This document shows, in pieces, positions 4,832-46,040 of a stretch of 64,000 nt of DNA. Source of the stretch: Oscillospiraceae bacterium (lineage in GTDB: Bacteria > Bacillota > Clostridia > UBA1212 > UBA1255); assembly GCA_015069185.1 (NCBI GenBank), contig SVJB01000004.1, positions 58,853 to 122,852 of the forward strand. The letters are read 5' to 3'. The notes under the pieces were generated by a model that was not told the DNA's origin, ran no database searches, and was given only the letters and a program-made list of their open reading frames with translations. The translations under genes and the position numbers were made by a program. Positions within the stretch are counted from its first letter, which is position 1; every line of letters begins with the position of its first letter.

Positions 4832-5926
4832 ATGATGAATAATAGAGATTTTAATAAGTTTTTCTATGTTTGGATAAGTCTGTTGGGTGAGAGCAGGTAT
4901 AAAACTTTGCGCTTTCTTATAGAAGAGTACGGCTGTGTTGAACATATAGCGGCAATCAAAAGTCGTGAAGACTTTACTCAGGCTTTGGCGGCATCGGAAA
5001 AACTCGCTGAAAATATTTTAGACCCTGATAAGAAGAAGGAGGCTCAGCATATTTGTTGTGAGGCAGCACGCCTTGGTATGAATATTGTGACTCTTGGAGA
5101 TGAGGAGTATCCTGAATATTTAAGTCAGATATATGCGCCGCCTCTTGTATTGTACTATTACGGCGCCTTGCCTCCTATGGGTTCACAGGCTGTCGCCGTA
5201 GTTGGATCCAGAGGCGCCAGTGGATACGGCAGAAATGTAGCATACAATCTATCAAAAGACTTAGCAAGCGCCGGCATTACCATTGTCAGCGGCATGGCAA
5301 GAGGAATTGACAGTTGTGCACATAAAGGTGCTTTGGCTGCGGGTACACCTACTGTTGCAGTATTAGGCTGTGGCGCAGATTATATATATCCGCCTGAAAA
5401 TAAAGAGTTGTACCATAAAATCACTGATTGTGGCGCTGTGATCAGCGAATTTTATCCGGGAACAATGCCTCAAAAGCAGTTTTTTCCTGCTCGTAATAGA
5501 ATTATTGCAGGGCTGTGTGCAGGGACTCTTGTAGTAGAGGCTCGCAGTAGCAGCGGAGCATTAATAACCACCGACAGCGCACTCAGAGAAAACAGAACAG
5601 TATATGCTATACCGGGGAATATCAACAGTGAGCTTTCTCTTGGTACAAATAAATTGATACAAAAAGGTGCGGTTTGTGTTACTTGTGCTAAGGATATTTT
5701 AGATGATCTTGGAGTGGATACTAAGCCAGGAGTCATTAGTAAAATAGATGGGCTTGACAAGAATCAGATTGCTGTTTGCCTTGCAATCTTGTCAAATGCA
5801 CAGAGCGTAGAAGAGGTGTGTGCTGCAACTAGTCTGGATGTTGCAACAGTCCTTGGCACTGTTACTCAACTTAAAATTAACGGAATAATAGAGGGAGTTG
5901 GTTTTGGAAATTATGTAGTGAAGTGA
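4832..5926 (+). CDS. dprA: DNA-processing protein DprA (Smf)
   Basis: A Rossmann-like DprA core (VVGSRGASGYGRNVAYNLSKDLASAGITIVSGMARGIDSCAHKGAL) sits in the conserved position upstream of topA. Confidence 0.9.
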   Translation: MMNNRDFNKFFYVWISLLGESRYKTLRFLIEEYGCVEHIAAIKSREDFTQALAASEKLAENILDPDKKKEAQHICCEAARLGMNIVTLGDEEYPEYLSQIYAPPLVLYYYGALPPMGSQAVAVVGSRGASGYGRNVAYNLSKDLASAGITIVSGMARGIDSCAHKGALAAGTPTVAVLGCGADYIYPPENKELYHKITDCGAVISEFYPGTMPQKQFFPARNRIIAGLCAGTLVVEARSSSGALITTDSALRENRTVYAIPGNINSELSLGTNKLIQKGAVCVTCAKDILDDLGVDTKPGVISKIDGLDKNQIAVCLAILSNAQSVEEVCAATSLDVATVLGTVTQLKINGIIEGVGFGNYVVK

Positions 5927-6036
5927 TTTAATGTTTATACACCTTCAAAAAAACCACTTTACAGAATCAAAAGATGAGGGTATTATAAGAAAATCGTTTT
6001 ACGATAAGTCGAATTTGCCTGTTTGAGAAAGGTTTT

Positions 6037-8160
6037 GTGAAAATGGCAGATAATTTAGTTATTATAGAGTCACCGGGAAAAGTTAAAACAATAAGCAAAG
6101 TCCTCGGTAGTAAATATAAAGTTATGGCATCGGCAGGACACTTAAGAGACCTGCCTGCAAGTAAGCTTGCCATTGATGTAGAAAATGATTTCAAACCTGA
6201 TTACATCAACATAAGAGGTAAGGGCGACATGATTAAGGAACTTCGAGCTGCCAGTAAAGCTGCAAAGAAAGTTTATCTTGCGACTGACCCTGATCGTGAA
6301 GGAGAAGCAATATCATGGCATCTTTCATATCTGCTTGGTATAGATCCTGCATCATTTTGTCGGATAACATTTAACGAACTTACTGAAAATGCAATTAAGA
6401 AAGCTGTTAAGGAACCAAGAGCAATAGATATGGAAATGGTTGATGCATACCAGGCAAGGCGAGTACTTGATCGTTTGGTTGGATATTCTATCAGCCCTGT
6501 ACTATGGCGCAAAGTTAAGAAAGGTCTCAGCGGTGGACGCGTACAATCAGTTGCTGTAAGACTTATATGTGATAGAGAAGATGAGATAGACGCATTTGAG
6601 AGTAAAGAGTTCTGGACCATTTCTGCAAGACTATGTAAAGACACAGATGTAAAGACTAAGGCAAAGGAATTTTCAGCAAAATTCCACGGAACTACTAAGA
6701 AAAAAATAAATATTGAGACAGGGCAAGAGGCACAGAAAATTGTAGATGCAGTGTCAAAAGAAATTTTCACAGTTAGTTCCATTAAGAACACTGAAAAAAG
6801 AAAATCACCGTTGCCACCTTTCATAACAAGTACACTACAGCAGGATGCATCGAGAAAGCTTTCTTTTACAGCAAGTCGTACAATGAGTGTGGTACAGACA
6901 CTTTATGAAGGTGTTAATCTCGGTAAAGCAGGCGCTACAGGTCTCGTTACGTATATAAGAACAGACTCTATGCGTATTTCAGACGAGGCTGCACAGGCTG
7001 CTCACGATTATATAGAGCAGAATTATGGAAGTAACTTCTTGCCGCCTAAGAGACGTATATATAAAAATAAGAATGCCGCTCAGGATGCACACGAAGCAAT
7101 TCGTCCTACTCACATTGATTTAAAGCCGGATGATATCAAGGCAAATCTCACAAATGATCAGTATAAGTTATATAAACTGATTTATGAAAGATTTATTGCC
7201 AGTCAGATGGCAGATTGTGTATATGATGTATGTGCTGTTGATATTGAGGCAGGTGAATACCTGTTCAAGGCAACCGGTACAGTAGTTAAGTTTGCAGGCT
7301 ATACAAAAGTTTATGAAGATATCAATGATAAGAAAGAAAAAGAAGACGGCGAGAATGGCAAGCTTCCTGAACTTGGTGAAAATGAGCAACTTAAGACTCT
7401 TGCGATAGCGCCCAAACAGCACTTTACTCAACCACCATCAAGATATAACGAAGCGTCACTTATTAAGGCTCTGGAGGAACATGGTATAGGTAGACCGAGC
7501 ACATATGCGCCGACAATCACAGTTATCCAGACACGTGGATATGTAGGCAAGGAAAAGAAAATGCTATATCCTACTGCTTTGGGTCGTATTGTAAACGACC
7601 TTATGAAGAACAGCTTCCCTGATATTGTAGATGTTAAGTTTACTGCAAAGGTAGAGGATAATCTTGACCATGTGGCAGAGGGTGATATTTACTGGGTGGA
7701 TGTTATAAGAGAGTTTTATACTGATTTTGATAAAGAGGTAAAGGTGGCATTAGATGAGCTGGAACATGTTAAGATACCGGATCCTGTAAGTGATGTTGCC
7801 TGTGATAAATGTGGCCGCATGATGGTAATTAAGACAGGTAAATTCGGACAGTTCTTAGCATGTCCGGGATATCCCGAATGTAAGAATACAAAGCCGATTA
7901 TAGAAGAAGCAGGCGTAGCTTGTCCAAAATGCGGTAGGAATTTGATTTATAGAAAGTCTAAGGCAGGTAAGAAGTATATCACATGCAGCGGATACCCTGA
8001 GTGCAAATTCATGTCATGGAATCTTCCTACAGGCAAGGCTTGCCCTGAGTGTGGAGAGCATCTTGAATACGTCATTGGTAAGAGCGGACGATTTGTTGCG
8101 TGCAGTAACAAAGACTGTCAATATAAGATTGGAATAAAAGAATATAAAAAAAGCGAGTGA
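6037..8160 (+). CDS. topA: DNA topoisomerase I
   Basis: A TOPRIM N-terminus (VIIESPGKVKTI), a type IA core and C-terminal tandem C4 zinc ribbons (CDKCGRMM, CPKCGRNL, CPECGEHL). The ATG at 6043 may be the true start. Confidence 0.95.
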   Translation: MKMADNLVIIESPGKVKTISKVLGSKYKVMASAGHLRDLPASKLAIDVENDFKPDYINIRGKGDMIKELRAASKAAKKVYLATDPDREGEAISWHLSYLLGIDPASFCRITFNELTENAIKKAVKEPRAIDMEMVDAYQARRVLDRLVGYSISPVLWRKVKKGLSGGRVQSVAVRLICDREDEIDAFESKEFWTISARLCKDTDVKTKAKEFSAKFHGTTKKKINIETGQEAQKIVDAVSKEIFTVSSIKNTEKRKSPLPPFITSTLQQDASRKLSFTASRTMSVVQTLYEGVNLGKAGATGLVTYIRTDSMRISDEAAQAAHDYIEQNYGSNFLPPKRRIYKNKNAAQDAHEAIRPTHIDLKPDDIKANLTNDQYKLYKLIYERFIASQMADCVYDVCAVDIEAGEYLFKATGTVVKFAGYTKVYEDINDKKEKEDGENGKLPELGENEQLKTLAIAPKQHFTQPPSRYNEASLIKALEEHGIGRPSTYAPTITVIQTRGYVGKEKKMLYPTALGRIVNDLMKNSFPDIVDVKFTAKVEDNLDHVAEGDIYWVDVIREFYTDFDKEVKVALDELEHVKIPDPVSDVACDKCGRMMVIKTGKFGQFLACPGYPECKNTKPIIEEAGVACPKCGRNLIYRKSKAGKKYITCSGYPECKFMSWNLPTGKACPECGEHLEYVIGKSGRFVACSNKDCQYKIGIKEYKKSE

Positions 8161-30346: not shown

Positions 30347-31489
30347 TTACTTATTGCCTTTTTTCAAAATTTTATTAACAAAAGACCGATTAGACGAAGA
30401 CTTATATTTGTGCTTCTTAGTGATATACTTTGATGAGCTATCTATGATAGATTTAGACAGGGAAGCAGGTAAACTCCAGTTTCCTATGTTATCAAGCCTG
30501 ATAATACCTGGGAGCATACTAATATTCTTTTCCTGAAGTAGACTGCGTCCGGATGCAATTTGCTTCAAAGCATGCAGCGCCGGTTTCATGTGAATAGCAC
30601 TGGAATCTCCTGAACAAAAGGCGATAAAATTATGTCCGGGTACGATGCCACAACGCAAATACGCTTCCATTTTCTTGCAAGCATCTTTGAAGTATGCAGG
30701 ATCATTCATCATGCCAAAATACTCAATATAATATGTTTTGCCGGCGCAGTTACACTTAAAATCCGGGTAGAAAACTTTTGGCGGCAAATCAACCATCCCA
30801 AATTCCGATGCTAAATTTTCAGTAGTAATGGTATCCTCAATTTCCAGACGAGTCTCGTACTGCGGCGTTAGACCGCACTGCAAGAAAGCATCATGCAATA
30901 ACAGTTCTCCGCGCGACATAAATCTCTCATTAGATCCATCCAAACACTTATATTTATCAGGTGAGAAGGATAATCTGTACTTATCATGCCACTTACGACA
31001 AGATAAAGCTCTATCTAACTCTTTGACGGCGTTGATTTCTTCTTCGTTTAGATCCGGAATATCATCAGGATGGTGATTGAAAGAAGACAGAATAAACCTA
31101 CGTGTGTTATTAACCAGCTCTGTGATGTATTTAAGAGATTCAGACAAATATCTGTATAAAACAGCATCGCGCTTTGTTTCGGCATATTCTTTATTAGTAA
31201 GGAAACGCGTGGCATGGTGCACTTTCTCGCACCCATTTTTATCTATCCATTTCTTAGAAATCCTAAGATAATGTTGATTGTATTCGTATATCCTGGGACT
31301 ACAGCCATCCTTGGGTGTGTACTTAACACGTTTCTTGTAAAATCGGATCTGCCCCGGATCAACCATGTGCGCCAGTCTCTGTTGTAATTGGTACTTTTTC
31401 TTACTAGCAGATAGAAGCTGTGTTCGCAAAATTGCGTACACATCAATTATTTCATTATCCGCAACAGGTAAATCACAAAAAATCGCCAT
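30347..31489 (-). CDS. Hypothetical protein, 380 aa; the C-terminal half carries a candidate PD-(D/E)xK nuclease core
   Basis: A long uninterrupted ORF on the strand opposite to all its neighbours. The motifs SRGELLLHDAF (helix Glu), FGMVDL (Asp) and YPDFK (DxK) occur in the order and spacing of restriction-endonuclease-like folds. The N-terminal half is Cys/His-rich (DGCSP ... NGCEKVHH). I recognise no family with confidence. Confidence 0.45.
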   Translation of the reverse strand: MAIFCDLPVADNEIIDVYAILRTQLLSASKKKYQLQQRLAHMVDPGQIRFYKKRVKYTPKDGCSPRIYEYNQHYLRISKKWIDKNGCEKVHHATRFLTNKEYAETKRDAVLYRYLSESLKYITELVNNTRRFILSSFNHHPDDIPDLNEEEINAVKELDRALSCRKWHDKYRLSFSPDKYKCLDGSNERFMSRGELLLHDAFLQCGLTPQYETRLEIEDTITTENLASEFGMVDLPPKVFYPDFKCNCAGKTYYIEYFGMMNDPAYFKDACKKMEAYLRCGIVPGHNFIAFCSGDSSAIHMKPALHALKQIASGRSLLQEKNISMLPGIIRLDNIGNWSLPASLSKSIIDSSSKYITKKHKYKSSSNRSFVNKILKKGNK

Positions 31490-31863: not shown

Positions 31864-33348
31864 ATGCAAACAGGATTCGATAATAATAAGTATTTACAAA
31901 AGCAGACTGAGCAAATAAAGAAAAGAATTGAAAGGTTTGGAGACAAGCTTTATCTTGAATTCGGCGGCAAAATGTTCGACGATTTTCACGCAGCAAGGGT
32001 ATTGCCCGGATTTGCAGCTGACGGCAAGATAAGACTCCTTTGTGAGTTCAAGGACATTTGTGAGATTCTGTTTTGCATAAATGCAACTGATATAGAGAAG
32101 AACAAGATCAGAGCGGACCTTGGTCTTACATATGATTTAGAGCTTCTTAGACTTATTGATTCTATGAGAGAGCTAGATCTTAAAATTGATAATGTTGTTA
32201 TTACGCAATACAACGGTCAGACAGCAGTTGACAAATTCAGGAATAAACTGGAAAGACGTGGTATCCATACATATCTGCATTATCCAATAAAAGGGTATCC
32301 AACAAACGTAGATCTCGTTGTTAGTGATGACGGTTACGGAAAGAACGAATTTGTACCTACAACAAGACCTCTTGTTGTAGTAACCGCTCCCGGACCATGC
32401 AGTGGTAAAATGGCAACCTGTCTATCACAACTCTATCATGAGAATAAAAGGGGAGTCAAAGCAGGTTACGCTAAGTTTGAAACATTTCCCATCTGGAATA
32501 TTCCGCTCAAGCATCCTGTTAATCTTGCGTATGAGGCTGCAACAGCAGACCTGAACGACGTAAACATGATCGATCCATACCACCTGGAGTCGTACGGCGA
32601 GCTTACTGTAAACTACAACAGAGATATAGAAGTTTTCCCTGTGGTAAAGACAATTCTCAATAAGATTTTAGGGGAAGATGTTTATAAATCTCCTACTGAT
32701 ATGGGCGTTAACATGGCAGGTTATGCAATTGCTGACAATGATAAAGTATGCAAAGCAGCCAATGAAGAAATAATCAGAAGATACTACAGAATAAAAGCAG
32801 ATTATGTACAGGGGTTAGTTGATAATGATACTGTTGATAAGATCAGTATCATAATGCAACAAGCCGGCCTTATGCCTGAAGACCGTAGTGTAGTCAAGGC
32901 AGCTCTTGATAAACGCAAGCAAAGCGGGAAACAAGCAATTGCGATACAGTTGCAAGATGGTACTATGGTAACAGGTCGTGACACAGATTTGATGGTGGCC
33001 TCAGCTAGCTGCGTGCTTAATGCACTAAAGAAACTGGCAAACATGCCAGATGAGCTGCTTCTCATATCTCCGGAGGTGCTTACACCGATAATTGCACTCA
33101 AAGAGTCTCTTAACGGCAAGAAAGATCTGGTGCTTGACATTGACGAGATTCTCATTGCGCTCAGCATATGTGCCGCGACAGATGAGAATGCAGCAAAGGC
33201 CCTCAGTCAGATAGACAAGCTTAAGAATCTTGAGGCTCACTCAACAACTATTCTGCCTACAAATGACGAGCAGATTCTCAAAAAAATAGGACTCAACCTT
33301 ACTGTCGAGCCCTGCTTTGCTACCAATTTCTTATATAACGGAAATTAA
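31864..33348 (+). CDS. UPF0371/DUF1846-family protein of unknown function
   Basis: A 494-aa protein beginning MQTGFDNNKYLQKQTEQIKKRIERFGDKLYLEFGGKMFDDFHAARVLPGF, which is characteristic of the Firmicute UPF0371 family. No function is assigned. Confidence 0.6.
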   Translation: MQTGFDNNKYLQKQTEQIKKRIERFGDKLYLEFGGKMFDDFHAARVLPGFAADGKIRLLCEFKDICEILFCINATDIEKNKIRADLGLTYDLELLRLIDSMRELDLKIDNVVITQYNGQTAVDKFRNKLERRGIHTYLHYPIKGYPTNVDLVVSDDGYGKNEFVPTTRPLVVVTAPGPCSGKMATCLSQLYHENKRGVKAGYAKFETFPIWNIPLKHPVNLAYEAATADLNDVNMIDPYHLESYGELTVNYNRDIEVFPVVKTILNKILGEDVYKSPTDMGVNMAGYAIADNDKVCKAANEEIIRRYYRIKADYVQGLVDNDTVDKISIIMQQAGLMPEDRSVVKAALDKRKQSGKQAIAIQLQDGTMVTGRDTDLMVASASCVLNALKKLANMPDELLLISPEVLTPIIALKESLNGKKDLVLDIDEILIALSICAATDENAAKALSQIDKLKNLEAHSTTILPTNDEQILKKIGLNLTVEPCFATNFLYNGN

Positions 33349-34475
33349 TCAAATAATAAATTATATAAATAATCTTGTAAACGAGAGGCTACATCAGGTT
33401 GGTACGCCTCTTTTGTTATTTCGTTGTTGGATATAACCCTAATGCCTGCGCATGGCACACCAAAATGCTTGCATACTTCATATACACCGGCGCACTCCAT
33501 CTCTTCCGCAATTTCACCGTACATATTACGCAGTCGATTGATTTGATTCTCATTTCTGCTGAACAAATCGCCACTACCAAGTATTCCTGTGAAAATCCTG
33601 ATGCCATCTCCTCCTGTTGACAGCCTTTTCACCAGGTCCTTGTCTCCATCAAAGAATTTAAATTGGTTATCAAGAGGAATCTCTGCGTCATCGCTGCCAA
33701 AATTAATATTTATATTCACACTTTTCTCTGCAACAACGAAATCTCCTACATGCATTTCAGGTAAGTGAGCTCCGGCTGTACCCTGATTAATAATATATGA
33801 CGGGTGAAAATGATTAATGGCAATAGTAGTTGCGATAGTGGCATTTGTCATGCCAATACCTGTCAGACTGATGACCAGTCCATCAGAAACATAAAAAACA
33901 AAGTCATTAATAACTACTTTCTTAAAGTCATTACGTTTCTTAAGCAAATCTGCGATCTCAACCATCATGGCGCCCTGTATCAACACAAGTGGACGATAAG
34001 AAAGCTTCGCCACAGACCAATTCTCCATAACAACACGCATTTTATTCGCTAATTTACACGCGCCATATAGATCGTGTGCCAGATAGTTACCGCATTCTAT
34101 GCGACTGTTTCCGGGAATATATGAGTGATCGTACGAATGACCGCCTGACAGGGCAACAAAATCAAGGGCATCACGGACAAGAGTAATCGCATCCTCATAA
34201 GACACAGTATTTCTCAATAACAGGTAGAATCCGGTCATGCAGCCCATAGGGCCAAAGTATACAACTTCAGAACCAAACTGACTGTTTCTAACAAATGTAG
34301 CAAATAAATGCTCTATTGTATGAGCTGCCTCCACACTCATGAAAGGGGGCGTATTAGGCTTGATAAAACGTAAATCGTATGTCACTACATCGCCGTCAAT
34401 ACGAGAAATATACATACCGGGCACCAGTACATCATGATTAACATCAAAGCTGGCGATACGTCTTAGCTCCTTCAT
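33345..34475 (-). CDS. luxS-mtnN: Fusion protein: S-ribosylhomocysteine lyase (LuxS, N-terminal) joined to 5'-methylthioadenosine/S-adenosylhomocysteine nucleosidase (MtnN/Pfs, C-terminal)
   Basis: Residues 1-~150 carry the LuxS motifs [21 protein letters not shown] (metal His) and [10 protein letters not shown]. Residues ~160-376 carry the Pfs motifs [45 protein letters not shown] and [26 protein letters not shown]. The reading frame is single and uninterrupted. Confidence 0.85.
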
Positions 34476-35593
34476 CTTAAATCAACAACCTCTTCCCACT
34501 TAAGTCCCATATTTTCCTTGCCGAAATGGCCGTAGTTAGTAGTCTTTGCATATAAAGGTGTACGCAAGTTAAGATACTTAATGATTGAAGCAGGTCTCAT
34601 ATCAAATTTATCAAGAATACGCTTCTCAATCTCACTCTCAGCAATTGTATTTGTGCCAAAAGTTTCAACGCGAACACTAACCGGCTCTGCAACACCGATA
34701 GCATAGCTTATCTGAATCTCGCACTTTGCAGCAAGACCGGAGGCAACTACACTCTTAGCAATATGTCGAGCCATATATGCGCCGCTACGGTCAACTTTCG
34801 TTGGATCCTTACCACTGAAAGCGCCGCCTCCATGACGTCCCATGCCGCCGTATGTATCAACTATGATCTTACGTCCGGTAAGACCTGAGTCAGCACATGG
34901 TCCGCCTAACACAAACCTACCTGTAGGATTTATAAAGAATTTAGTGTTTTCGTCAATTAATTCAGCCGGAAGCACTGCTTTGATAACGTGCTCTAAGATA
35001 TCTTTACGCAAATCCTCGATAGACACGGAGTCTGCGTGCTGTGATGATACAACAACCGCATCAATCCGAAGTGGCTTATTATCTTCTGAATATTCCACTG
35101 TTACCTGGGATTTACCGTCAGGACGCAGATAGGGGAGCGTACCATCTCGTCTCACCTGTGTCAATTTATATGCCAGTTTGTGGGCAAGACTGATAGGAAG
35201 AGGCATCAGCTCCGGCGTCTCATCGCATGCGTAGCCAAACATCATTCCCTGATCTCCGGCACCTTCAATATCAACGCCCATTGCAATATCAGGTGACTGC
35301 TCATGTACGCAGTTAAGTACTGCACATGTGTGTCCGTCAAAACCAAGGTCTGATGAATCATATCCAATATCAACAACTGTATCTCGTACTATCTTTTGAA
35401 AATCAACGTATGTAGTAGTTGTGATCTCACCCATAATAAGGATCTGACCTGTAGCAGCAGTTACCTCGCAGGCAACACGTGCCTTAGGGTCATCATTTAT
35501 AATAGCATCCAGAATGCGATCTGCAATAGTATCGCAGATTTTATCGGGATGTCCTTCTGTAACTGATTCTGATGTAAAAAACTTTCTTGACAT
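34472..35593 (-). CDS. metK: S-adenosylmethionine synthase
   Basis: [40 protein letters not shown], and 373 aa length. Confidence 0.95.
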
Positions 35594-35616: not shown

Positions 35617-36390
35617 TTATATTCTTACAGAAATACCTTTATTTGCCAGGTATTTCTTCAATTCAGGTATACTAAGCTCTTTGAAATGAAACAAAGATGC
35701 CGCCAATACAGCCTCTGCATGTCCATCTACAACAGCGTCATAAAAATGCTCCATGGTGCCGGCACCGCCTGATGCAATTACAGGAATATCGACATTATCA
35801 CTGACAGCTCTTGTTAACTCAATATCATAACCAGCCTTAGTGCCGTCACAATCCATACTTGTCAGCAGTATCTCACCGGCGCCCATCTTGGCACACTCAA
35901 CAGCCCATTTGACAGCGTCAATGCCTGTGTTCACGCGTCCGCCGTTCAGGTAAGCATCGAACCCCACAATCTGCCCTTTATCATTATAACGCCTTTTGGC
36001 ATCAATTGCCACCACAATGCATTGACGTCCAAAACGATAAGCGCCTTCCTGCACCAGAGTAGGATTCTTCAATGCCGCCGAATTAACACCAACCTTATCT
36101 GCACCGGCAAGCAGCGTGTCGCGTATATCATCAACTGTTCTGATACCGCCGCCTACAGTAAATGGCAAGAAAATATTTTCAGCAATTCTTTTCACCATAT
36201 CTAGCTTTGTAGCTCTGGCGTCTGATGAGGCAGTGATATCCAGAAATACCAACTCATCTGCGCCTTGACTGTCATAAGCTTTGGCACATTCAACCGGATC
36301 TCCGGCATCAATCAGATTAACAAAATTCACGCCTTTGACTACTCGGCCGTCCTTGACATCAAGACACGGAATAATTCTCTTTGTATGCAT
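35617..36390 (-). CDS. hisF: Imidazole glycerol phosphate synthase cyclase subunit HisF, isolated copy
   Basis: Near-canonical HisF sequence ([64 protein letters not shown]). I take the start at the internal Met (MHTKR), 26 codons into the tracked ORF. No other his genes are in the window. Confidence 0.85.
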
Positions 36391-36490: not shown

Positions 36491-36970
36491 ATGGAAAGCT
36501 TATTGGATTTATTAGATAAACACGGAAATTTAACAATTGAAGAGATGTCAACAATGCTTGGACGTGACGCCGCGGAAATTGCCGCTGAGATTGATGAATA
36601 TAAGAACGCAGGTATTATCGTAGGCAATAAGCTTATAATCAACTGGCAGAAGACAGCAAGAGAGTTTGTTACTGCCCTTATCGAAGTAAAGGTGACTCCT
36701 AAGTTTGGCAGAGGCTTTGACGAGATAGCAGAGAGATTTTATCAGTACGAACAGGTAAAGTCTGTTTACCTTATGTCAGGCGGATACGATATAGCTCTCA
36801 TAATCGAAGGAAAGACACTTACAGAAGTAGCACTGTTTGTGTCACAGAAGCTGGCGCCTATGGATACAGTAATCAGTACAGCCACACACTTTGTACTTAA
36901 GAAATATAAAGAGGACGGAATGTTACTGGAGATTCCTCACAAAGATGAAAGACAGGTGATCTCCTTTTGA
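36491..36970 (+). CDS. Lrp/AsnC-family transcriptional regulator
   Basis: An N-terminal HTH (LTIEEMSTMLGRDAAEIAAEI) and a C-terminal RAM domain, at 159 aa. Confidence 0.85.
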   Translation: MESLLDLLDKHGNLTIEEMSTMLGRDAAEIAAEIDEYKNAGIIVGNKLIINWQKTAREFVTALIEVKVTPKFGRGFDEIAERFYQYEQVKSVYLMSGGYDIALIIEGKTLTEVALFVSQKLAPMDTVISTATHFVLKKYKEDGMLLEIPHKDERQVISF

Positions 36971-38139
36971 GTTTCGATCCTAATAGTTTATTAAATCCTG
37001 TTCTGACCGCTATTAAGCCGTCTGGCATCAGAAAATTATTTGATATTGCAAACAGCATGGAGGGTGTTATATCTCTTGGTATTGGCGAGCCCGATTTCCC
37101 GACTCCTTGGCATATACGTGACGCAGGTATTCGTTCACTGGAAGGTAGCCGCACACAGTATACGTCCAATGCCGGTATGATAGAGTTAAGACGCTCTATA
37201 TCAGAGTATCTGCAACGCAGATTTTCACTGGAATATAACCCGGATAGCAACATATTAGTTACAGTAGGCGGTAGCGAAGCTATCGATCTTTGTATGCGCG
37301 CACTGCTTATACCGGGCGATGAGGTTATTATTCCTTTCCCCAGCTTTGTTTGTTATGCTCCTATAGCAGAACTTTGTGGAGCAAAGGTAGTACCAATTTA
37401 TATGAAAGCTGAGGACAATTTTAAGCTTACTGCTACAGATCTCAAAAATGCAATTACTGACAAAACAAAGCTATTGGTGCTGCCTTTCCCGAACAACCCT
37501 ACAGGTGCTATTATGGACAGACAGGATCTGGAGGCTATCGCAGATGTATTACGTGATACAAATATTGCGGTGCTGTCTGATGAGATATATGCAGAGCTTA
37601 ACTATACAGAGGAAGGTCATGTTTCTATCGCTCAAATAGATGGAATGAAAGAACGTACTATTTTGGCAAACGGCTTTTCAAAGGCATATTCTATGACAGG
37701 ATGGAGAATGGGTTATTTATGTGCTGCGTCAGCTTTTGTGAAACAATTTACGAAACTGCATCAGTATGCAATTATGTGTGCACCAACGACCAGCCAGTAT
37801 GCGGCTATCGAGGCTATTCGCTATGGTGATGAAGATGTGGCAAATATGCGTAAGGAATATAACTATCGTAGACGTTTTATTGTAGATGGTTTTAATAAAT
37901 TAGGTCTTACATGCTTTGAACCGCAAGGTGCATTCTATTGCTTCCCATGTATCAAATCAACAGGCTTGACATCAGATGAATTTTGTCAGAAGCTTCTGTA
38001 TGATAAGAAGGTAGCCTTGGTGCCCGGAACCGCGTTTGGCGATAACGCAGAGGGTTTTATTCGTGTGTCATATGCATATTCTATAGAACATATAAAAATA
38101 GCGCTTGACAAGATAAAGGAGTGGCTCTCAAATGAATGA
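36967..38139 (+). CDS. Class I/II PLP-dependent aminotransferase (AspC/AlaT-like)
   Basis: LGIGEPDFPTP near the N-terminus, the SKAYSMTGWRMGY motif around the PLP lysine, and 390 aa. It has a TTG start overlapping the lrp stop. Confidence 0.85.
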   Translation: MSFDPNSLLNPVLTAIKPSGIRKLFDIANSMEGVISLGIGEPDFPTPWHIRDAGIRSLEGSRTQYTSNAGMIELRRSISEYLQRRFSLEYNPDSNILVTVGGSEAIDLCMRALLIPGDEVIIPFPSFVCYAPIAELCGAKVVPIYMKAEDNFKLTATDLKNAITDKTKLLVLPFPNNPTGAIMDRQDLEAIADVLRDTNIAVLSDEIYAELNYTEEGHVSIAQIDGMKERTILANGFSKAYSMTGWRMGYLCAASAFVKQFTKLHQYAIMCAPTTSQYAAIEAIRYGDEDVANMRKEYNYRRRFIVDGFNKLGLTCFEPQGAFYCFPCIKSTGLTSDEFCQKLLYDKKVALVPGTAFGDNAEGFIRVSYAYSIEHIKIALDKIKEWLSNE

Positions 38140-40417
38140 TGGATGCAAATGGATATGGACACCAGATGGATATGAAGAGAAAGTAAATATTTATGTTCAT
38201 TTCAAAACAAGTTTTACAATAGAGGAGTGCGCAACTGCTTCTGCCTACACATTCAAAATCAGTGCTGACAGTCAATATGCGCTGTGGATTAATGATAGAT
38301 TTGTGAATTATGGTCAGTATGCGGATTATCCTGATTATAAGGTATATGATACGCTTGATGTGACTGATTATATAGAATCCGGTGAAAATAAAATTTATAT
38401 TCTTGCATATCATCAAGGTACCAGTTCATCTACATATACTACAGGTAGGGCAGGGCTTCTTTTTAAATTGATAAACGGAACAGATATTATTGTTCAGAGT
38501 GACAGTAATGTTCAATGTGCGGTGTCTACTGAATATAAGAATGGACCTATTGAGATGGTTTCAGGTCAGCTTGGTTATGCTTTTGAGTATGATGCAACAA
38601 AGATTGAGGATAATGTATGGTGTGATGCAGTAGTTGTAGGTACTCCAATACGTCTTACAGAAAGACCTATACAGAAGCTGATAATTGAAGATAGAGCTCC
38701 TGCTACTCTGATTGCACAGGGCGTGTATAAATATGATAGAGCTACTGTCAACCATGTGACTGCAGAGAAAATGCAAAGAGCATATATGTCAGCAAGAGAA
38801 CTTGGACATATAGCACCTACAGCCGGTCCGGCTCCGTATGCTATCAGTCCGGATAGTCCTCTTTGTGTACAGGCAAGCTGTGATGATGGAGTATACTTAA
38901 TTATTGACTTAGGCAAAGAAACAGCAGGTCTATTTGATATTTTAATACAGGCAGACAGAGGTACTGTTGTTAATATCGGTTATGGACAGCATCTTGCTGA
39001 TCTACGTGTGCGTACTTCTGTAGGCGGACGCTGTTTCACAGGAAAATATATATGTTCAGGTCGTGGTATTGAACATTTCACACATTTTAATAAACGCTTT
39101 GGCTGCAGATATATCGAACTTATGATCGAAAGTGGCGAGTTTGATCTGTATTATGCAGGTGTATTGCCTACGGTGTATCCTGTGACAAATGTTGGCAGAT
39201 TTGTTTGCTCTGACACGTTACATAATAAAATTCATGATATAAGTATTGATACTTTGCGCTTGTGCATGCATGAACATTATGAAGATACACCATGGAGAGA
39301 GCAGGCCTTATATAGCATGGATTCACGTAATCAGATTCTCTGTGGATATTATACGTTCGGAGAATATGATATGCCTCGCGAGAGCCTGCGTTTACTGGCA
39401 ATGGGACAGAATGCTGATGGGCTTTTAGAGTTATGTGCTCCGGCTAAGGTGTCTGTAACAATTCCATCCTTTTCTTTGCAATGGATTTTAGAATTATATG
39501 AGTATGTTCTATATAGCGGAGACTTGGATTTTGCATATGAAATGTGGCCATGTGCAGAGAAGATTATTGCTGCCTTCTGGCGTAACAGCCGCGGACGTGA
39601 ACTGGTAGGATCTTGGTCTCATAATAGCAGATATTGGAATTTCTATGAATGGGCACCTGGCCTTGATGGCAATTATATGAATGATGTCCGTGATAAGAAT
39701 AACAAAGAGAATTTTGATGCACCTTTGTCATGCTTCTATATGATAGCACTGCTGCGCATGATCAAGCTGGCAAAGTGGCTTGTATCATATACAAGTGATG
39801 ATATAGATTTTATGGAAAAATCTTCTTGGTTTGAGATGCTGGCAAGTGGAGTTTACGATAGCTTTGATGCGGCTTTTTGGGATAGTAGCAAAGGTGTATA
39901 TGCAACGTATATAGTAAATGGAGAGAGAACAGATCATTACTGTCAACTTGCAAATGCTTTGGCGTTATATGCAGGCCTTGTTCCGGAAGAAAAGATATCT
40001 ACTGTATCAAATGCTTTGGCATATGATAAATCTCTTATTCCGGTAACACTCAGTGCTTCTGTATTTAAATATGAGGCTCTGTTAATGCAAGGGGAGCGCT
40101 TTGCTCAATATGTAATAGATGAGATTGCAGATAAGTGGGGTAACATGCTCTATCAAGGCGCTACTTCCTTCTGGGAAACAGAGAAAGGCAGCTGGGATTT
40201 CGATAATGCAGGCAGCCTCTGTCATGGGTGGAGCGCAGTACCTCTTATCGTATATTACAAATATATACTTGGCGTTACTCCTGCAGAACGTGGGTTTGGT
40301 GATTACAAATTTAAACCTTTAAGAACATCTTTAATAACTGCAGAGGGTAATATTTATAGATTAAAAGGAAAAGCTCTTCATGTAAATATTTCACCGGAAG
40401 GATTTGAAATACAATAA
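38132..40417 (+). CDS. GH78-like six-hairpin glycoside hydrolase (putative alpha-L-rhamnosidase paralogue)
   Basis: The N-terminus CKWIWTPDG...VHFKTSFTIEE...YALWINDRFVNYGQY parallels the GH78 N-domain pattern seen in the 9524 gene. The C-terminal (alpha/alpha)6-like region, 761 aa. It overlaps the aminotransferase stop by 8 nt. Confidence 0.55.
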   Translation: MNDGCKWIWTPDGYEEKVNIYVHFKTSFTIEECATASAYTFKISADSQYALWINDRFVNYGQYADYPDYKVYDTLDVTDYIESGENKIYILAYHQGTSSSTYTTGRAGLLFKLINGTDIIVQSDSNVQCAVSTEYKNGPIEMVSGQLGYAFEYDATKIEDNVWCDAVVVGTPIRLTERPIQKLIIEDRAPATLIAQGVYKYDRATVNHVTAEKMQRAYMSARELGHIAPTAGPAPYAISPDSPLCVQASCDDGVYLIIDLGKETAGLFDILIQADRGTVVNIGYGQHLADLRVRTSVGGRCFTGKYICSGRGIEHFTHFNKRFGCRYIELMIESGEFDLYYAGVLPTVYPVTNVGRFVCSDTLHNKIHDISIDTLRLCMHEHYEDTPWREQALYSMDSRNQILCGYYTFGEYDMPRESLRLLAMGQNADGLLELCAPAKVSVTIPSFSLQWILELYEYVLYSGDLDFAYEMWPCAEKIIAAFWRNSRGRELVGSWSHNSRYWNFYEWAPGLDGNYMNDVRDKNNKENFDAPLSCFYMIALLRMIKLAKWLVSYTSDDIDFMEKSSWFEMLASGVYDSFDAAFWDSSKGVYATYIVNGERTDHYCQLANALALYAGLVPEEKISTVSNALAYDKSLIPVTLSASVFKYEALLMQGERFAQYVIDEIADKWGNMLYQGATSFWETEKGSWDFDNAGSLCHGWSAVPLIVYYKYILGVTPAERGFGDYKFKPLRTSLITAEGNIYRLKGKALHVNISPEGFEIQ

Positions 40418-40419
40418 TC

Positions 40420-40448
40420 TTGACTTTTGACTTTATAAACAGTATCAT
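40420..40448 (+). promoter_or_regulatory. Putative sigma-A promoter of the thr operon (TTGACT-N17-TATCAT)
   Basis: Seen in sequence ~55 nt upstream of the thrC ATG. There is no T-box-sized leader. Confidence 0.45.
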
Positions 40449-40501
40449 ACATGGTTGTTGTATTATTTTTTCTACAACGAATAATATTTAGGTGATTTTA
40501 T

Positions 40502-41983
40502 ATGACATTCGGTAGCACAAGAGGAATGAGCAAGGGATATAGCTTCTCAGATGCAGTACTTCGCGGTATTGCTCCTGATGGCGGACTCTTTATCCCAGAT
40601 GAATTCCACGTATACGATTCATTCGAGCTCTCTGAGCTCTCAACATTAGATTATAAAAGTCTTGCATGTGAGATTTTCAAGCATTATGCCACTGATTTTA
40701 CGGCTGAGGAGATTCGTGCTTGCGTAGATAAAGCATACACAGGTCTTGACGTTAAGCTTACATCAGTAAACGGATATCTTAATGTGCTTGAGTTATGGCA
40801 TGGTCCTACAGCAGCTTTTAAGGATATGGCTTTGCAGATACTGCCTGAATTTATGTCTGTGGCCCTCAAGAAAAGTAACAGACATGATAAGATTGCTATC
40901 TTAACTGCTACATCGGGAGATACAGGTAGCGCAGCGCTCAAAGGCTTCAAAGATGTTGATAATATTAAGTTGATGGTATTTTATCCGGTAAATGGTGTCA
41001 GCCAGATGCAGAAGCGTCAGATGGTAACACAAGAGGGCTCTAATCTTAATGTTGTTGCTGTAGAGGGTAACTTTGACGATGCACAGACAGGCGTTAAGAA
41101 CATTTTTGCTAACTATGAATTTTCACAGAAAATGGCAGAAAGAGGATACAGTTTATCTTCTGCAAACTCAATTAACATAGGAAGATTGCTGCCTCAGGTT
41201 GTTTATTATTTCTATGCTTACTTTCTTATGTGCAAGAAAGGCGCCGTGACATTTGGATCAAAGATTAATTTTGCAGTGCCTACCGGTAATTTTGGAAATA
41301 TTCTTGCATGCTATTATGCAAAGAAATGTGGATTACCTGTTAACAGAATTATTTGTGCTACTAACGATAATAATGTAGTTTCAGAGTTTATGACAACAGG
41401 CACATATAATGCAAATAGAAAATTTATGGAGACTATTTCACCTGCGATGGATATTCTGATTTCTTCAAATTTAGAGAGACTTCTCTATGATATGACAGGT
41501 GAAGATAGCGCCTTGGTTGCTGATTTAATGATTTCGCTCAAGAATCAGGGTGTGTACAGTGCAGATAAGAAGACAATGAACAATATTAACGCTCATTTTT
41601 GGTCATCATATGCGACACAGGAAGATTGTATCAGAACTATTAAGTCAGTGTATGAGCGGTACGGATATCTTATTGACCCTCACACCAGTGTTGGTTTTGA
41701 TGTGTATGATAAATATGTTATATCAACAGGAGATACAACCAAGACTGTAACAGTATCTACTGCCAGTCCTTTCAAATTTAACAAGACAGTTTCTGACAGT
41801 ATCTTTGGTGAAAATGATACGGCATCAATGAATGAATTTGAGATTTTAGAGTACTTATCGGCAAAGACAGGCAATCCTATTCCATGGCCGCTTAAGGATC
41901 TTGATAAGAAAACAGTGCTTCACAAGAAAGTATGTAAGAAAAGCGATATGATTAAAGAGGTGGATGAGTTTTGTTCAAAATAG
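40502..41983 (+). CDS. thrC: Threonine synthase (long form)
   Basis: MTFGSTRG...FSDAVLRGIAPDGGLFIPDEF, the PLP-lysine region FKDMALQ, and 493 aa. Confidence 0.9.
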   Translation: MTFGSTRGMSKGYSFSDAVLRGIAPDGGLFIPDEFHVYDSFELSELSTLDYKSLACEIFKHYATDFTAEEIRACVDKAYTGLDVKLTSVNGYLNVLELWHGPTAAFKDMALQILPEFMSVALKKSNRHDKIAILTATSGDTGSAALKGFKDVDNIKLMVFYPVNGVSQMQKRQMVTQEGSNLNVVAVEGNFDDAQTGVKNIFANYEFSQKMAERGYSLSSANSINIGRLLPQVVYYFYAYFLMCKKGAVTFGSKINFAVPTGNFGNILACYYAKKCGLPVNRIICATNDNNVVSEFMTTGTYNANRKFMETISPAMDILISSNLERLLYDMTGEDSALVADLMISLKNQGVYSADKKTMNNINAHFWSSYATQEDCIRTIKSVYERYGYLIDPHTSVGFDVYDKYVISTGDTTKTVTVSTASPFKFNKTVSDSIFGENDTASMNEFEILEYLSAKTGNPIPWPLKDLDKKTVLHKKVCKKSDMIKEVDEFCSK

Positions 41984-43221
41984 CTATATTAGGCGGCGGA
42001 GTTGTAGGCTCAGGCGTAGCAGATATTTTAATAGATAAAAGCAAGGCGCTCTCTGAGCGTTTTCACAAAGATGTTTCACTGGCATATATTCTCGATATTA
42101 GAGATATGACAGGTACGAAATATGAACCATATTATACTAACGATAAGGAAGTAGTATTCAGCGATGATGATGTAAAGCTTATCGTTGTTACAATTGGTGG
42201 TTTGGATCTTGCTGCAGATTTTTGCAGACGTGCTCTTAAATCAGGCAGACATGTTGTTACTTCTAATAAAGAGGTTGTAGCAGCTGTGGGTCGTGAGCTT
42301 ACATTGCTTGCAGATGAAAATAATGTTCGTTTCCTGTATGAGGCAAGTAGTGGCGGTGGCATTCCGATTATCCGTCCTCTTAATCTTTGTCTTGCATCAA
42401 ATGATATTTATGAGATTAATGGTATCTTGAATGGTACAACAAACTATATATTGACATGTATGTATCAGGACAGACTTTCTTTTGATGTTGCTCTTAAAAA
42501 TGCTCAGGCGGCAGGTTATGCAGAGGCAAATCCTTCTGCTGACGTAGATGGATACGATGCAGCACGTAAAATTGCAATATTGTCTTCAATTTCATATGGC
42601 AAGTTCGTTGATTATAATGATGTAAAATGTACGGGTATTAGAGATGTTATATACGATGATCATGAATTTGCTGCAAGCGCAGGCTATGCAATTAAGCTGA
42701 TTGCCGGTAGCCGTAATACAGATAAAGGTGTTACATGTACGGTTGAGCCTAAGCTTGTGCCCAAATCTAATATGCTGGCATCTGTTAATTCAGTGTATAA
42801 CGCAGTACTTGTTAAAGGTTCATACACAGGCGACACACTTATGTACGGACAGGGTGCAGGTAAACTGCCGACTGCCAGCGCTGTTGTAGGAGACATCATT
42901 GATATTCTCACAGATGCAAACAAACAGGCACTTCCCGGATTTGTTCATAATAATGCTGTTGTTATAGAAGATACAGAGGCGTGCGATAAGTACTATGTAC
43001 GTATTAATGTATCCTATGATAATGAAAGCGATGATATCAAAGATGCTGTAATTAAATGCTTTGGTGACAAGGCGTTATTCCTTGGTGCGTCTTTATCAAA
43101 TCATAGTATTGTTGCATTTATCACTGAGAAATGCACTGCAGCTGATTTTACTGCAAAGCTTGATGCTTTCTGTGACATTACAGGAGCAAAGGCGGAATAT
43201 AAATTAAAAGTAATTGATTAA
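41971..43221 (+). CDS. hom: Homoserine dehydrogenase
   Basis: An NAD-binding N-terminus (IAILGGGVVGSGV), a catalytic domain and a C-terminal ACT domain. It has a TTG start overlapping the thrC stop. Confidence 0.9.
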   Translation: MFKIAILGGGVVGSGVADILIDKSKALSERFHKDVSLAYILDIRDMTGTKYEPYYTNDKEVVFSDDDVKLIVVTIGGLDLAADFCRRALKSGRHVVTSNKEVVAAVGRELTLLADENNVRFLYEASSGGGIPIIRPLNLCLASNDIYEINGILNGTTNYILTCMYQDRLSFDVALKNAQAAGYAEANPSADVDGYDAARKIAILSSISYGKFVDYNDVKCTGIRDVIYDDHEFAASAGYAIKLIAGSRNTDKGVTCTVEPKLVPKSNMLASVNSVYNAVLVKGSYTGDTLMYGQGAGKLPTASAVVGDIIDILTDANKQALPGFVHNNAVVIEDTEACDKYYVRINVSYDNESDDIKDAVIKCFGDKALFLGASLSNHSIVAFITEKCTAADFTAKLDAFCDITGAKAEYKLKVID

Positions 43222-43235
43222 AATTGGTGGAGAGA

Positions 43236-44594
43236 ATGATGAAAGTTATTAAATTTGGTGGCAGCTCGCTGGCTGATGCAAAACAGATATTAAAAGTATG
43301 TAAGATTATTTTATCGGATGATGAGAGACGTCTTGTTGTTGTTTCTGCTCCCGGTAAGCGATATAGCGACGACAAGAAAGTAACAGATATGCTGATTTCT
43401 CTTGCTGATGCAAGCTATAACGGTCAGAATACGGATGTTATTTTAGATGAAATTGTAGAACGATACGCAAGTATCTCACGTAATCTTGGTTTGGATAATA
43501 AAATTATTAATCTTATCAGAGAAGATCTGGTAAGCCGTATTAACACAAAGACTGAGAGTTATAATAAATTTGTTGATTTACTTAAAGCGGCAGGCGAGGA
43601 TAACAACGCTAAGCTTATTGCATACTATTTGCAAAGTAAAGGCGTTAACGCAGAGTATGTTAACCCCAAAGATGCCGGAATGATCCTTACTGATGAGTTT
43701 GGTAATGCACAGGTACTTCCGTCATCATATGATAAGCTCAGTGAACTTGCAAATCGTGATACTATTATGATTTTCCCAGGGTTCTTCGGATATTCTGAGA
43801 GTGGAGAGGTTGTCACATTTTCACGTGGCGGATCAGATGTCACAGGCGGTGTACTGGCTGCAGCTATTAAGGCTTCGGTGTACGAAAACTTTACAGACGT
43901 AGATTTTGTATATGCTGCTAATCCTAATCTTATTGATAATCCTTTCCCGATTCCGCTGTTTACATACGAGGAAATGCAGGAACTTTCATACGCCGGCTTC
44001 AGTGTACTTCACGAAGAAGCTTTGGCTCCTGTTTATAAGGTAGGCATTCCCGTTAATATCCGCAATACAAACAATCCTGACGCCAAGGGCACAATGATTG
44101 TTCCCGGCAAGATGGCTCCAAAGCCGACTTTACCTGTTGTAGGTATTGCATGTGACAAAGGCTTCCTCACACTCCATGTACACAAGTACATGATGAACCG
44201 TGAGATTGGATTTGGTCGCAAGCTTCTCCAGATTTTAGAAGAAAACGGTGTTCCTTTTGAACACATGCCTTCAGGTATGGACAGTATCTCAATTATCATG
44301 CGCGAGAAACATTGTGCAAATGGTATTTTGGAGAAGATGATTGAAGAAATTAAAACAACTCTCAACGTTGACAGCGTAGTTGCGGAGAAGAATCAGGCGA
44401 TTTTAATGCTGGTTGGCAGAGGTATGACAAAGAGTGTAGGTGTAGCTACAAGAGCTACTGCTGCTTTCTCTAAGTCAGGCATCAATATTCGCATGATCAA
44501 CCAAGGTTCATCCGAGGTAAGCATCATGTTCGGTGTAGAAGAGAGCGATGCCAAGGCTGCCGTTGTAGCACTTTATAATGAGTTTTTTAATTAA
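43236..44594 (+). CDS. lysC: Aspartate kinase
   Basis: MKVIKFGGSSLAD and C-terminal tandem ACT domains. A GGTGGAGAG RBS lies upstream. Confidence 0.9.
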   Translation: MMKVIKFGGSSLADAKQILKVCKIILSDDERRLVVVSAPGKRYSDDKKVTDMLISLADASYNGQNTDVILDEIVERYASISRNLGLDNKIINLIREDLVSRINTKTESYNKFVDLLKAAGEDNNAKLIAYYLQSKGVNAEYVNPKDAGMILTDEFGNAQVLPSSYDKLSELANRDTIMIFPGFFGYSESGEVVTFSRGGSDVTGGVLAAAIKASVYENFTDVDFVYAANPNLIDNPFPIPLFTYEEMQELSYAGFSVLHEEALAPVYKVGIPVNIRNTNNPDAKGTMIVPGKMAPKPTLPVVGIACDKGFLTLHVHKYMMNREIGFGRKLLQILEENGVPFEHMPSGMDSISIIMREKHCANGILEKMIEEIKTTLNVDSVVAEKNQAILMLVGRGMTKSVGVATRATAAFSKSGINIRMINQGSSEVSIMFGVEESDAKAAVVALYNEFFN

Positions 44595-44603
44595 GGGATA
44601 TAG

Positions 44604-46040
44604 ATGATCACAAATCTTGCTGAATACAAAGAGTATATACGTAACAAGAAGATTGCTGTTATCGGTTTCGGTATCAGCAATCAAGCTTTAGTGCGTTTTC
44701 TAAATAAATGCGGCGCCCATAATATCAGTATTTTTGATAAGTCAACAGCTGACACATTTATTTCTTCCTGTGAAAAGCTTGTTTCCGCCGGAACGATTTG
44801 TGACTATTTTTATGGAGATAAATATTTATCGACTTTGACAGGTGGGAAATATGACATTATTTTCCGCTCTCCGATTGTTCGTTATGATACTCCGGAGGTA
44901 GCTGCATGTGTAGCTGAGGGTAGCGTACTTACTTCGGAGATTGAAACAGTTCTGATGTTGGCACCTTGCAAAACATACGGCGTGACAGGTAGTGATGGCA
45001 AGACCACGACTACCACTTTAATCAGTAAATTTCTGGAAGCCCATTATGCAGGTAGTGATACAAGAATCTGGCTTGGCGGTAACATAGGTAGACCACTTAT
45101 TGATGTTATTGATGAGATTAAGCCATCTGACCGTATAGTTCTAGAACTCAGCAGCTTCCAGCTTATGGATATGAAAATCAGTACTGATGTTGCTGTTATT
45201 ACTAATCTGTCACCAAATCACCTGGATGTACATAAAAGCTATGAGGAATATGCTTTTGCTAAGAAAAGCATATTTGCATATCAAAAAGAGAACGGACGTC
45301 TTGTTTTAAACGCTTTAGATGAGATGTCAGTAAAGTTGCTGGGGGACAGAAGAACAAATGTTTCATATTTTTCAGCAAGAACAAATAAGGTTCCGGGATT
45401 TTCATCTGGCTCATCGCTTTTATCCGATGATGGCAGTTATCTGGTTTATAAGGATGCATCAAAGAGACTTACTTTGTCTCGTGACACAATCAACGTACTT
45501 GGGTTATTTAATGTAGAGAATTTCCTTGCAGCGATGTGTGCCGTAAAGGATGAAGTAGATGACAGTGATCTTGAGAAGGTTGCTGCTGCTTTTCACGGGG
45601 TAGAACACCGCCTCGAGTATGTACGCACTGTTAGCGGTGTTAAATTCTATAACAGTTCTATAGATAGCAGTCCCAAAAGGACTATTTCAACGTTATCTGT
45701 TTTTACACAAAAGATAATAATGATTGCCGGCGGCAAGGATAAAGGTATTTCTTATGAAGAAATCGGACCTGTTCTTTGTGAAAAAGTTAAGGTACTTGTG
45801 CTTGTAGGACCCACTTCACAGGCTATTGAGGAGTCTGTTAATAACGCGGATCCCAATCATAAAATTACAATTATAAGACAACACAATTATCGGGATGCTG
45901 TTGATTGTGCATACAGTCATGCACAGTCCGGAGATATTGTTTTATTATCTCCTGCCAGCACAAGTTTTGACCTCTTTAGAAATTTTGAAGAACGCGGAAA
46001 GAAATATAAAGAAATTGTAAATTTACTAAACCTCAAGTAA
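44604..46040 (+). CDS. murD: UDP-N-acetylmuramoyl-L-alanine--D-glutamate ligase
   Basis: A Mur-ligase Rossmann N-domain (IAVIGFGISNQA), the P-loop GVTGSDGKTTTTTL and a C-terminal Mur-ligase domain. Confidence 0.85.
   Translation: MITNLAEYKEYIRNKKIAVIGFGISNQALVRFLNKCGAHNISIFDKSTADTFISSCEKLVSAGTICDYFYGDKYLSTLTGGKYDIIFRSPIVRYDTPEVAACVAEGSVLTSEIETVLMLAPCKTYGVTGSDGKTTTTTLISKFLEAHYAGSDTRIWLGGNIGRPLIDVIDEIKPSDRIVLELSSFQLMDMKISTDVAVITNLSPNHLDVHKSYEEYAFAKKSIFAYQKENGRLVLNALDEMSVKLLGDRRTNVSYFSARTNKVPGFSSGSSLLSDDGSYLVYKDASKRLTLSRDTINVLGLFNVENFLAAMCAVKDEVDDSDLEKVAAAFHGVEHRLEYVRTVSGVKFYNSSIDSSPKRTISTLSVFTQKIIMIAGGKDKGISYEEIGPVLCEKVKVLVLVGPTSQAIEESVNNADPNHKITIIRQHNYRDAVDCAYSHAQSGDIVLLSPASTSFDLFRNFEERGKKYKEIVNLLNLK

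Follow-up and report, generated by a model that had tools for sequence, protein, structure and literature searches.

A natural fusion of LuxS with an Asn-type MTAN-like nucleosidase next to metK in uncultured Clostridia: a probable single-polypeptide route from S-adenosylhomocysteine to homocysteine

Does a single natural polypeptide carry out two consecutive steps of the activated-methyl cycle? The question is raised by a 64,000-nucleotide stretch of DNA (the window) from an Oscillospiraceae bacterium (GenBank assembly GCA_015069185.1, contig SVJB01000004.1, positions 58,853 to 122,852), in which one gene encodes a LuxS domain joined to a nucleosidase domain. An earlier note, made from the letters of the window, described the gene as a fusion of LuxS and Pfs (MtnN), the 5'-methylthioadenosine (MTA)/S-adenosylhomocysteine (SAH) nucleosidase, hereafter MTAN. 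Our preferred reading, to which we assign a probability of about 0.6, is that the gene encodes a true bifunctional enzyme of the activated-methyl cycle, maintained by selection and co-translated with MetK, the S-adenosylmethionine (SAM) synthetase. Its C-terminal nucleosidase would take the purine off SAH to give S-ribosylhomocysteine, which the N-terminal LuxS, a metal-dependent lyase, would then split into homocysteine and 4,5-dihydroxy-2,3-pentanedione (DPD), the precursor of autoinducer-2 (AI-2). The most interesting aspect of the gene is its fusion partner, which is an MTAN-like nucleosidase without the textbook catalytic aspartate.

The fusion gene and its LuxS half

The open reading frame (ORF) begins with ATG and extends over 1131 nt (376 aa) with no internal stops, both in the ORF listing and in the sequence itself (Table 1). 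Pfam assigns aa 6-147 to LuxS (E 2.9e-43; 147.7 bits against a gathering score of 27) and aa 165-352 to PNP_UDP_1, the phosphorylase/nucleosidase family (E 2.7e-33; 115.8 bits); the ORF and the two domains thus bear out the original description of one uninterrupted polypeptide with LuxS at its N-terminus and a nucleosidase at its C-terminus. The two domains meet at about nt 33995/33996 (aa 160/161) without a linker: the C-terminal helix of LuxS passes straight into the first strand of the nucleosidase (LVLIQGAMM). Both halves are predicted with confidence in an AlphaFold2 monomer model, which has a mean predicted local distance difference test score (pLDDT) of 92, a predicted template modeling score of 0.76, and a pLDDT of ~88-92 at the junction. 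The nucleosidase domain has no signal peptide and is internal to a cytoplasmic fusion.

The LuxS half was compared, residue by residue, with Bacillus subtilis LuxS (verified as identical to PDB 1ie0; EC 4.4.1.21). Its metal ligands H52, H56, and C128 correspond to B. subtilis His54, His58, and Cys126; the catalytic residues E55 and C79 to Glu57 and Cys84; and the substrate-binding residues S9, H14, and R36 (which come from the partner subunit), together with R63, to Ser6, His11, Arg39, and Arg65. F7 of the B. subtilis enzyme is likewise conserved. The HxxEH motif is present as HTIEH (aa 52-56) and the ten-residue GPMGCxTGFY loop occupies aa 75-84; the LuxS motifs are complete, as had been claimed, and the same metal-binding, catalytic, and substrate-binding residues are conserved in every other fusion that we examined. 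The fold of this half is also confidently predicted. The differences from B. subtilis LuxS are an overall identity of ~28%, a short insert ahead of the third metal ligand, and the continuation of the C-terminal helix into a second domain. We regard the LuxS half as a functional LuxS.

Conservation of the fusion

An identical protein is present in NCBI as MBE7066431.1 from a Ruminococcaceae/Oscillospiraceae metagenome-assembled genome (MAG), and the 90%-identity cluster of the fusion protein has nine members from several contigs. A homolog of 87% identity (P0002) is represented by at least 24 contigs drawn from different samples, and two further homologs are 83% (the gene of relative L006) and 69% (P0003) identical. 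The four diverged lineages (69-87% identity, from independent assemblies) all keep the reading frame and the linker-less junction. In codon alignments of the four, synonymous divergence (dS) is saturated (at least 1.8 where calculable), whereas nonsynonymous divergence (dN) is 0.09-0.25, giving overall dN/dS ratios of 0.04-0.08; by half, the ratios are 0.02-0.08 for the nucleosidase and ~0.05 for LuxS. Purifying selection acts on both halves and on the junction.

These data bear directly on whether the fusion could be an artefact of assembly, frameshift, or gene calling, or whether two neighboring genes recently became joined by neutral read-through. The one observation in favor of such an origin is that the L006 annotation divides the gene in two, with 81 aa assigned to a LuxS fragment and 231 aa to a nucleosidase. 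The L006 ortholog (5566..6696) is nevertheless the same 1131-nt gene, with a single in-frame GGA-to-TGA change at a conserved Gly of GPMGCxTGFY, away from the junction; this stop codon could be a sequencing error, or a nonsense mutation and recent inactivation of LuxS. L006 was also considered as a natural two-gene form, but this was rejected because the gene has one nonsense codon inside LuxS and is not split at the junction. No stop codon or frameshift was found at the junction in independent sequence data. Since the frame and the junction are common to the four diverged lineages, which come from independent samples and show saturated dS and dN/dS ratios of 0.04-0.08, an artefact is excluded.

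The nucleosidase half is Asn-type

For the nucleosidase half, the reference was Escherichia coli MTAN (verified as identical to PDB 4wkc and 1jys; EC 3.2.2.9), to which it is ~28% identical. The two share the PNP_UDP_1 fold, and the fusion keeps E173 (E. coli Glu12, which activates water), M326 and E327 (Met173 and Glu174, which bind the ribose), R346 (Arg193), and S349 (Ser196). However, Asp197, the general acid that protonates adenine N7 in the E. coli enzyme, is replaced by Asn350. Two other differences are a Thr in place of Ser76 and Glu324 in place of Val171, the latter being a candidate compensating acidic residue. The top 50 PDB matches in a Foldseek search are all MTANs or futalosine hydrolases, but the nucleosidase half falls below both NCBIfam MTAN equivalog cutoffs (102.4 against 169 for NF004079, and 70.9 against 73.8 for TIGR01704). 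The description of this half as a complete Pfs therefore holds for its length and fold, but not in the sense of a canonical MtnN/Pfs. With Asp197 missing and the equivalog cutoffs not reached, SAH hydrolysis is inferred and not evident from the sequence.

The Asn is not peculiar to this protein. An exhaustive search with the nucleosidase half covered 1.84 billion representatives, and the 150 nearest (50%-identity representatives) were examined: 133 have Asn at the position of E. coli residue 197 and keep the other catalytic residues. Position 171 is Glu in all 137 aligned Asn-type sequences, whereas it is Val, Tyr, Cys, or Ala in E. coli MTAN and the Asp-type fusions (one of these 13 is gapped in the alignment). 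The Asn-type signature, in E. coli numbering, is Gln74/Thr76/His80/Glu171/Asn197, which in the fusion is Q231, T233, H237, E324, and N350. As the Asn is stable in a large family and always accompanied by Glu at position 171, it is not a sign of decay. Glu352, two residues beyond Asn350, was also considered as a relocated acid but is found in only ~68% of Asn-type sequences, making Glu324 the better candidate.

The Asn-type branch is large and poorly studied. It consists mostly of stand-alone cytoplasmic proteins of ~240 aa, with a minority of secreted or wall-anchored forms. A crude hydrophobicity test picked out signal-peptide-like N-termini in only ~19 of 149 family representatives, and secretion is thus not a defining property of the branch. 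The only LuxS fusion among the 150 nearest representatives is the cluster of the fusion itself. The contexts of two stand-alone genes, one in an ABC-transporter cluster and the other in a methyltransferase/HSP33/U32-peptidase cluster, were uninformative. A set of other Asn-type proteins (P0121, P0127, P0131, P0186, P0197, P0210, P0228, and P0240) includes tandem duplications, fusions to GrpB or to a GNAT acetyltransferase, and cell-wall-anchored forms that combine SLH or Cu_amine_oxidN1 domains with signal peptides; their architectures suggest that extracellular nucleoside scavenging may be among several roles within the branch.

The best match of the nucleosidase half in the PDB, by both sequence (phmmer E 2e-29) and structure (Foldseek E 5.8e-23, ranks 1-4, template modeling score 0.76-0.77 on the target), is the periplasmic MtaN-1 of Aeromonas hydrophila (AhMtaN-1; PDB 5b7g, 5b7n, 5b7p, and 5b7q; Xu et al. 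2017, Biochemistry 56:5347), which was deposited as an MTA/SAH nucleosidase and is the sole Asn-type member with a solved structure. The two proteins have INQGTAGxH, Glu at position 171, and Asn at position 197 in common. In contrast, AhMtaN-1 is a stand-alone, secreted, gammaproteobacterial protein with a longer insert in the loop region, whereas the nucleosidase domain of the fusion, which is ~30% identical to it, has no signal peptide and is joined to LuxS. A review (PMC6302742) treats AhMtaN-1 as a functional periplasmic MTA nucleosidase.

Other LuxS fusions

Recurrence of the architecture was surveyed among the 120 best database matches to the full-length protein, clustered at 90% identity. 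LuxS and PNP_UDP_1 occur together in 16 clusters, in both domain orders, and these form at least seven or eight sequence-distinct groups, between which the nucleosidase halves are no more than 44% identical. All groups outside the clade of the window's fusion have the canonical Asp197, and the two Asp-type fusions that were scored (P0005 and P0017) pass both MTAN equivalog cutoffs and the LuxS equivalog cutoff. The other natural fusions in public metagenomes (e.g., P0005, P0009, and P0010; in reverse order P0007, P0013, P0017, P0021, and P0044) resemble the window's fusion in having the same two Pfam domains, a length of ~380-410 aa, and intact LuxS residues. Because their nucleosidase halves are Asp-type and share just 23-39% identity with those in the clade of the window's fusion, and because half of them have the opposite order, they are independent events. 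The existence of LuxS followed by an Asn-type domain, LuxS followed by an Asp-type domain, and an Asp-type domain followed by LuxS implies at least three separate fusions. The genes also occur as unfused neighbors: luxS lies 13 nt ahead of mtnN in one Ruminococcus MAG, and the reverse order, mtnN then luxS, is seen elsewhere; together with fusions in both orders, these pairs indicate that the two functions have repeatedly been linked.

The window-type fusion itself is found in a narrow clade of uncultured gut and rumen Clostridia (Oscillospiraceae-like). A pattern-based scan of GTDB species representatives found it in only two species beyond the source, both uncultured Clostridia MAGs, one of which is named as coming from sheep rectum.

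The earlier note knew of no characterised LuxS-Pfs fusion. Our literature searches found no description of a natural one, only engineered constructs and pathway reviews, and none of the 10 clusters whose source names were checked is named as a fusion or bifunctional protein. The architecture is, however, not unique, and engineered Pfs-LuxS "nanofactory" chimeras that turn SAH into AI-2 have been published (Fernandes et al. 2010, as described in PMC3564257). By that description, the chimeras likewise carry both activities on one polypeptide, but they are synthetic and combine the E. coli enzymes, including an Asp-type Pfs, with tags and protein G. With natural fusions recurring, engineered ones working, and fusions of consecutive enzymes being commonplace, the fusion is less unusual than was first supposed.

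LuxS is also found in related bacteria as the C-terminal domain of other fusions, evidence that it is readily joined to unrelated neighbors. Many clusters among P0019-P0120 join it to a TadA-like deaminase (PF00383/PF14437; e.g., P0024 and P0112, 306 aa) in which the HAE and PCxxC zinc motifs are intact. Further N-terminal partners are RluA (P0022 and P0047), GH25 lysozyme (P0033, with 1279 member sequences), MatE (P0023), and Macro (P0011).

Operon and neighborhood

The gene adjoins metK, as first described. The TGA stop of metK, directly upstream, overlaps the ATG of the fusion as ATGA, an overlap that is classic for translational coupling and indicates it for these two genes. A gap of 23 nt separates hisF from metK, and the fusion is the last gene of the apparent hisF-metK-fusion operon. 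The metK-fusion arrangement is also present in L001-L003 and L006-L008, and hisF upstream of metK is conserved in relatives. The wider context, comprising the operon and the convergent DUF1846 gene, is found for the P0002 and L006 genes and in full in L008 (the genome-representative counterpart of P0003); the short P0003 contig itself shows DUF1846 downstream and one upstream ORF. A comparable grouping is the Borrelia burgdorferi bb0374-pfs-metK-luxS operon (Riley et al. 2007, as cited in PMC4570706), in which metK is co-transcribed with two SAH-recycling functions. The Borrelia genes are separate; in the window, luxS is fused to the nucleosidase gene and hisF is the partner upstream.

Table 1. 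Features of the window around the LuxS-nucleosidase fusion (positions are those of the window)
Feature	Position	Strand	Basis
380-aa ORF between trpS and DUF1846	30347..31489	-	No Pfam or NCBIfam match
DUF1846 gene (UPF0371-type), convergent on the fusion	31864..33348	+	Pfam; NCBIfam NF010184 ("hypothetical protein")
Terminator-like hairpin and T-run, 32 nt past the fusion stop, inside the 3' end of DUF1846	33288..33313	-	Consensus match only
Fusion gene, LuxS and Asn-type MTAN-like nucleosidase, 376 aa plus stop	33345..34475	-	ORF, Pfam, AlphaFold2 model
Nucleosidase half, aa 161-376, AhMtaN-1-like	33348..33995	-	Alignments; best structural match 5b7q/5b7p
Asn350 codon (AAC), E. coli Asp197 position	33426..33428	-	Sequence and alignments
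Glu324 codon, E. coli Val171 position; candidate compensating acidic residue	33504..33506	-	Alignments
LuxS half, aa 1-160	33996..34475	-	Pfam; residue table against B. subtilis LuxS
metK (SAM synthetase)	34472..35593	-	TIGR01034, 578 bits; Pfam
hisF, first gene of the apparent operon	35617..36390	-	TIGR00735, 379 bits against a cutoff of 294.55

Several features of the surroundings were recorded in passing. hisF has neither hisH nor other his genes alongside. The stop codons of DUF1846 and the fusion overlap by 4 nt (TTAA, 33345-33348), and both the overlap and the pairing are kept in L001-L006. The slot occupied by the 380-aa ORF is variable, relatives carrying in its place an unannotated protein of ~995 aa (740 aa in L006). 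Divergent from the operon, genes on the forward strand from 36491 to 46040 encode an AsnC/Lrp-type regulator, a class I/II aminotransferase, an alpha-L-rhamnosidase, ThrC, Hom, an aspartate kinase carrying ACT domains, and a Mur ligase. thrC, hom, and the aspartate kinase gene belong to the aspartate family, so that the homoserine branch leading to methionine is encoded near the SAM-cycle operon. Rfam models, applied to the whole window at gathering thresholds, matched no families, and neither a SAM riboswitch nor a T-box was found before hisF or metK.

Discussion

The preferred reading of a bifunctional SAH-to-homocysteine/DPD enzyme requires that the nucleosidase half be active with Asn at its general-acid position. 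Asn350 could hydrogen-bond adenine N7/N6, with the invariant Glu324 standing in for the missing acid. Coupling to metK would mean that SAM synthetase and the enzyme that disposes of SAH are made together, and the simplest benefit of the fusion itself would be a fixed 1:1 stoichiometry and co-localisation. Substrate channelling between the two active sites is speculative. LuxS, whose active sites lie at its dimer interface, and MTAN are both homodimers, and a rigid fusion with no linker must therefore satisfy two two-fold axes.

Several observations weigh against this reading. Besides the loss of Asp197 and the scores below the MTAN equivalog cutoffs, the LuxS half narrowly misses its own NCBIfam equivalog, NF002604 (146.2 against 158 bits), and NCBI names the protein only as hypothetical. 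Because LuxS is fused to a range of unrelated partners, fusion alone is weak evidence of coupling and carries no implication of channelling. D-to-N substitutions in E. coli and Helicobacter pylori MTAN have, by the titles of PDB entries 1z5o, 4oy3, and 4p54, been used to trap intact MTA or SAH, and the Spiroplasma fibril protein, which is derived from an MTAN and has Asn at the same site, is inactive.

The substitution and these precedents make it conceivable, if unlikely, that the nucleosidase half is dead or very slow and serves an active LuxS as a ligand-binding, regulatory, or dimerisation scaffold, with S-ribosylhomocysteine coming from a separate canonical MtnN. The D197N and D198N mutants of canonical MTANs, after all, hold intact substrate in crystals, and crystals of AhMtaN-1 reportedly contained intact SAH and 5'-deoxyadenosine, as would be expected if turnover were slow. 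The fibril protein is, however, an imperfect parallel: its Arg and Ser are also changed, and its adenine pocket is filled by another chain of the same protein; no such changes are seen in the fusion. Retention of Glu12, Met173, Glu174, Arg193, and Ser196 and the dN/dS ratios of the nucleosidase half likewise argue for a working domain, as does the pairing of Asn with an invariant Glu171 throughout a large and mostly stand-alone family. Moreover, a tblastn search of the 64-kb window, the part of the genome that was covered, found neither a second mtnN nor a second luxS.

It is less likely still that the nucleosidase is active but shifted in specificity, either toward 6-oxopurine nucleosides (for instance S-inosylhomocysteine, from which S-ribosylhomocysteine would still be released) or toward 5'-deoxyadenosine or MTA over SAH. 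In the superfamily of purine nucleoside phosphorylase (PNP) and MTA phosphorylase, Asn or Asp at a purine-contacting position tracks a preference for 6-oxo or 6-amino purines, respectively (human PNP has Asn243), and the Asn-type branch both has a signature of its own and scores below the MTAN equivalog models. Nonetheless, AhMtaN-1, its sole member of known structure, entered the PDB as an MTA/SAH nucleosidase, no gene for an SAH or MTA deaminase was found next to the fusion, and both the LuxS partner and the coupling with metK favor the SAH route.

The bifunctional enzyme that we favor can also be looked at from the side of the branch as a whole. It is possible, and we propose it tentatively, that Asn-type proteins are MTAN-like enzymes with a different catalytic solution (Asn plus the invariant Glu171) or a different purine specificity (e.g., for S-inosylhomocysteine), and that the metK-coupled LuxS fusion is a "Rosetta stone" that would assign S-ribosylhomocysteine-forming activity to all of them. 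A LuxS fusion situated beside metK is the best available clue that members of the Asn-type branch produce S-ribosylhomocysteine.

The domains, their pathway, the logic of the operon, and the concept of joining the two enzymes were all known before, and the advance is incremental whether or not the nucleosidase half proves to be active. An inactive half would make the protein a case in which LuxS has recruited a pseudoenzyme domain. If the half is active, gut and rumen Clostridia would possess a natural enzyme that takes SAH to homocysteine and the AI-2 precursor on one polypeptide, a counterpart of the engineered AI-2 nanofactories, and the fusion would provide the first functional handle on an Asn-type MTAN branch that current curated models leave unnamed or "hypothetical". 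An account of catalysis by an MTAN without Asp197 would, in addition, refine a mechanism that drug design targets with transition-state MTAN inhibitors.

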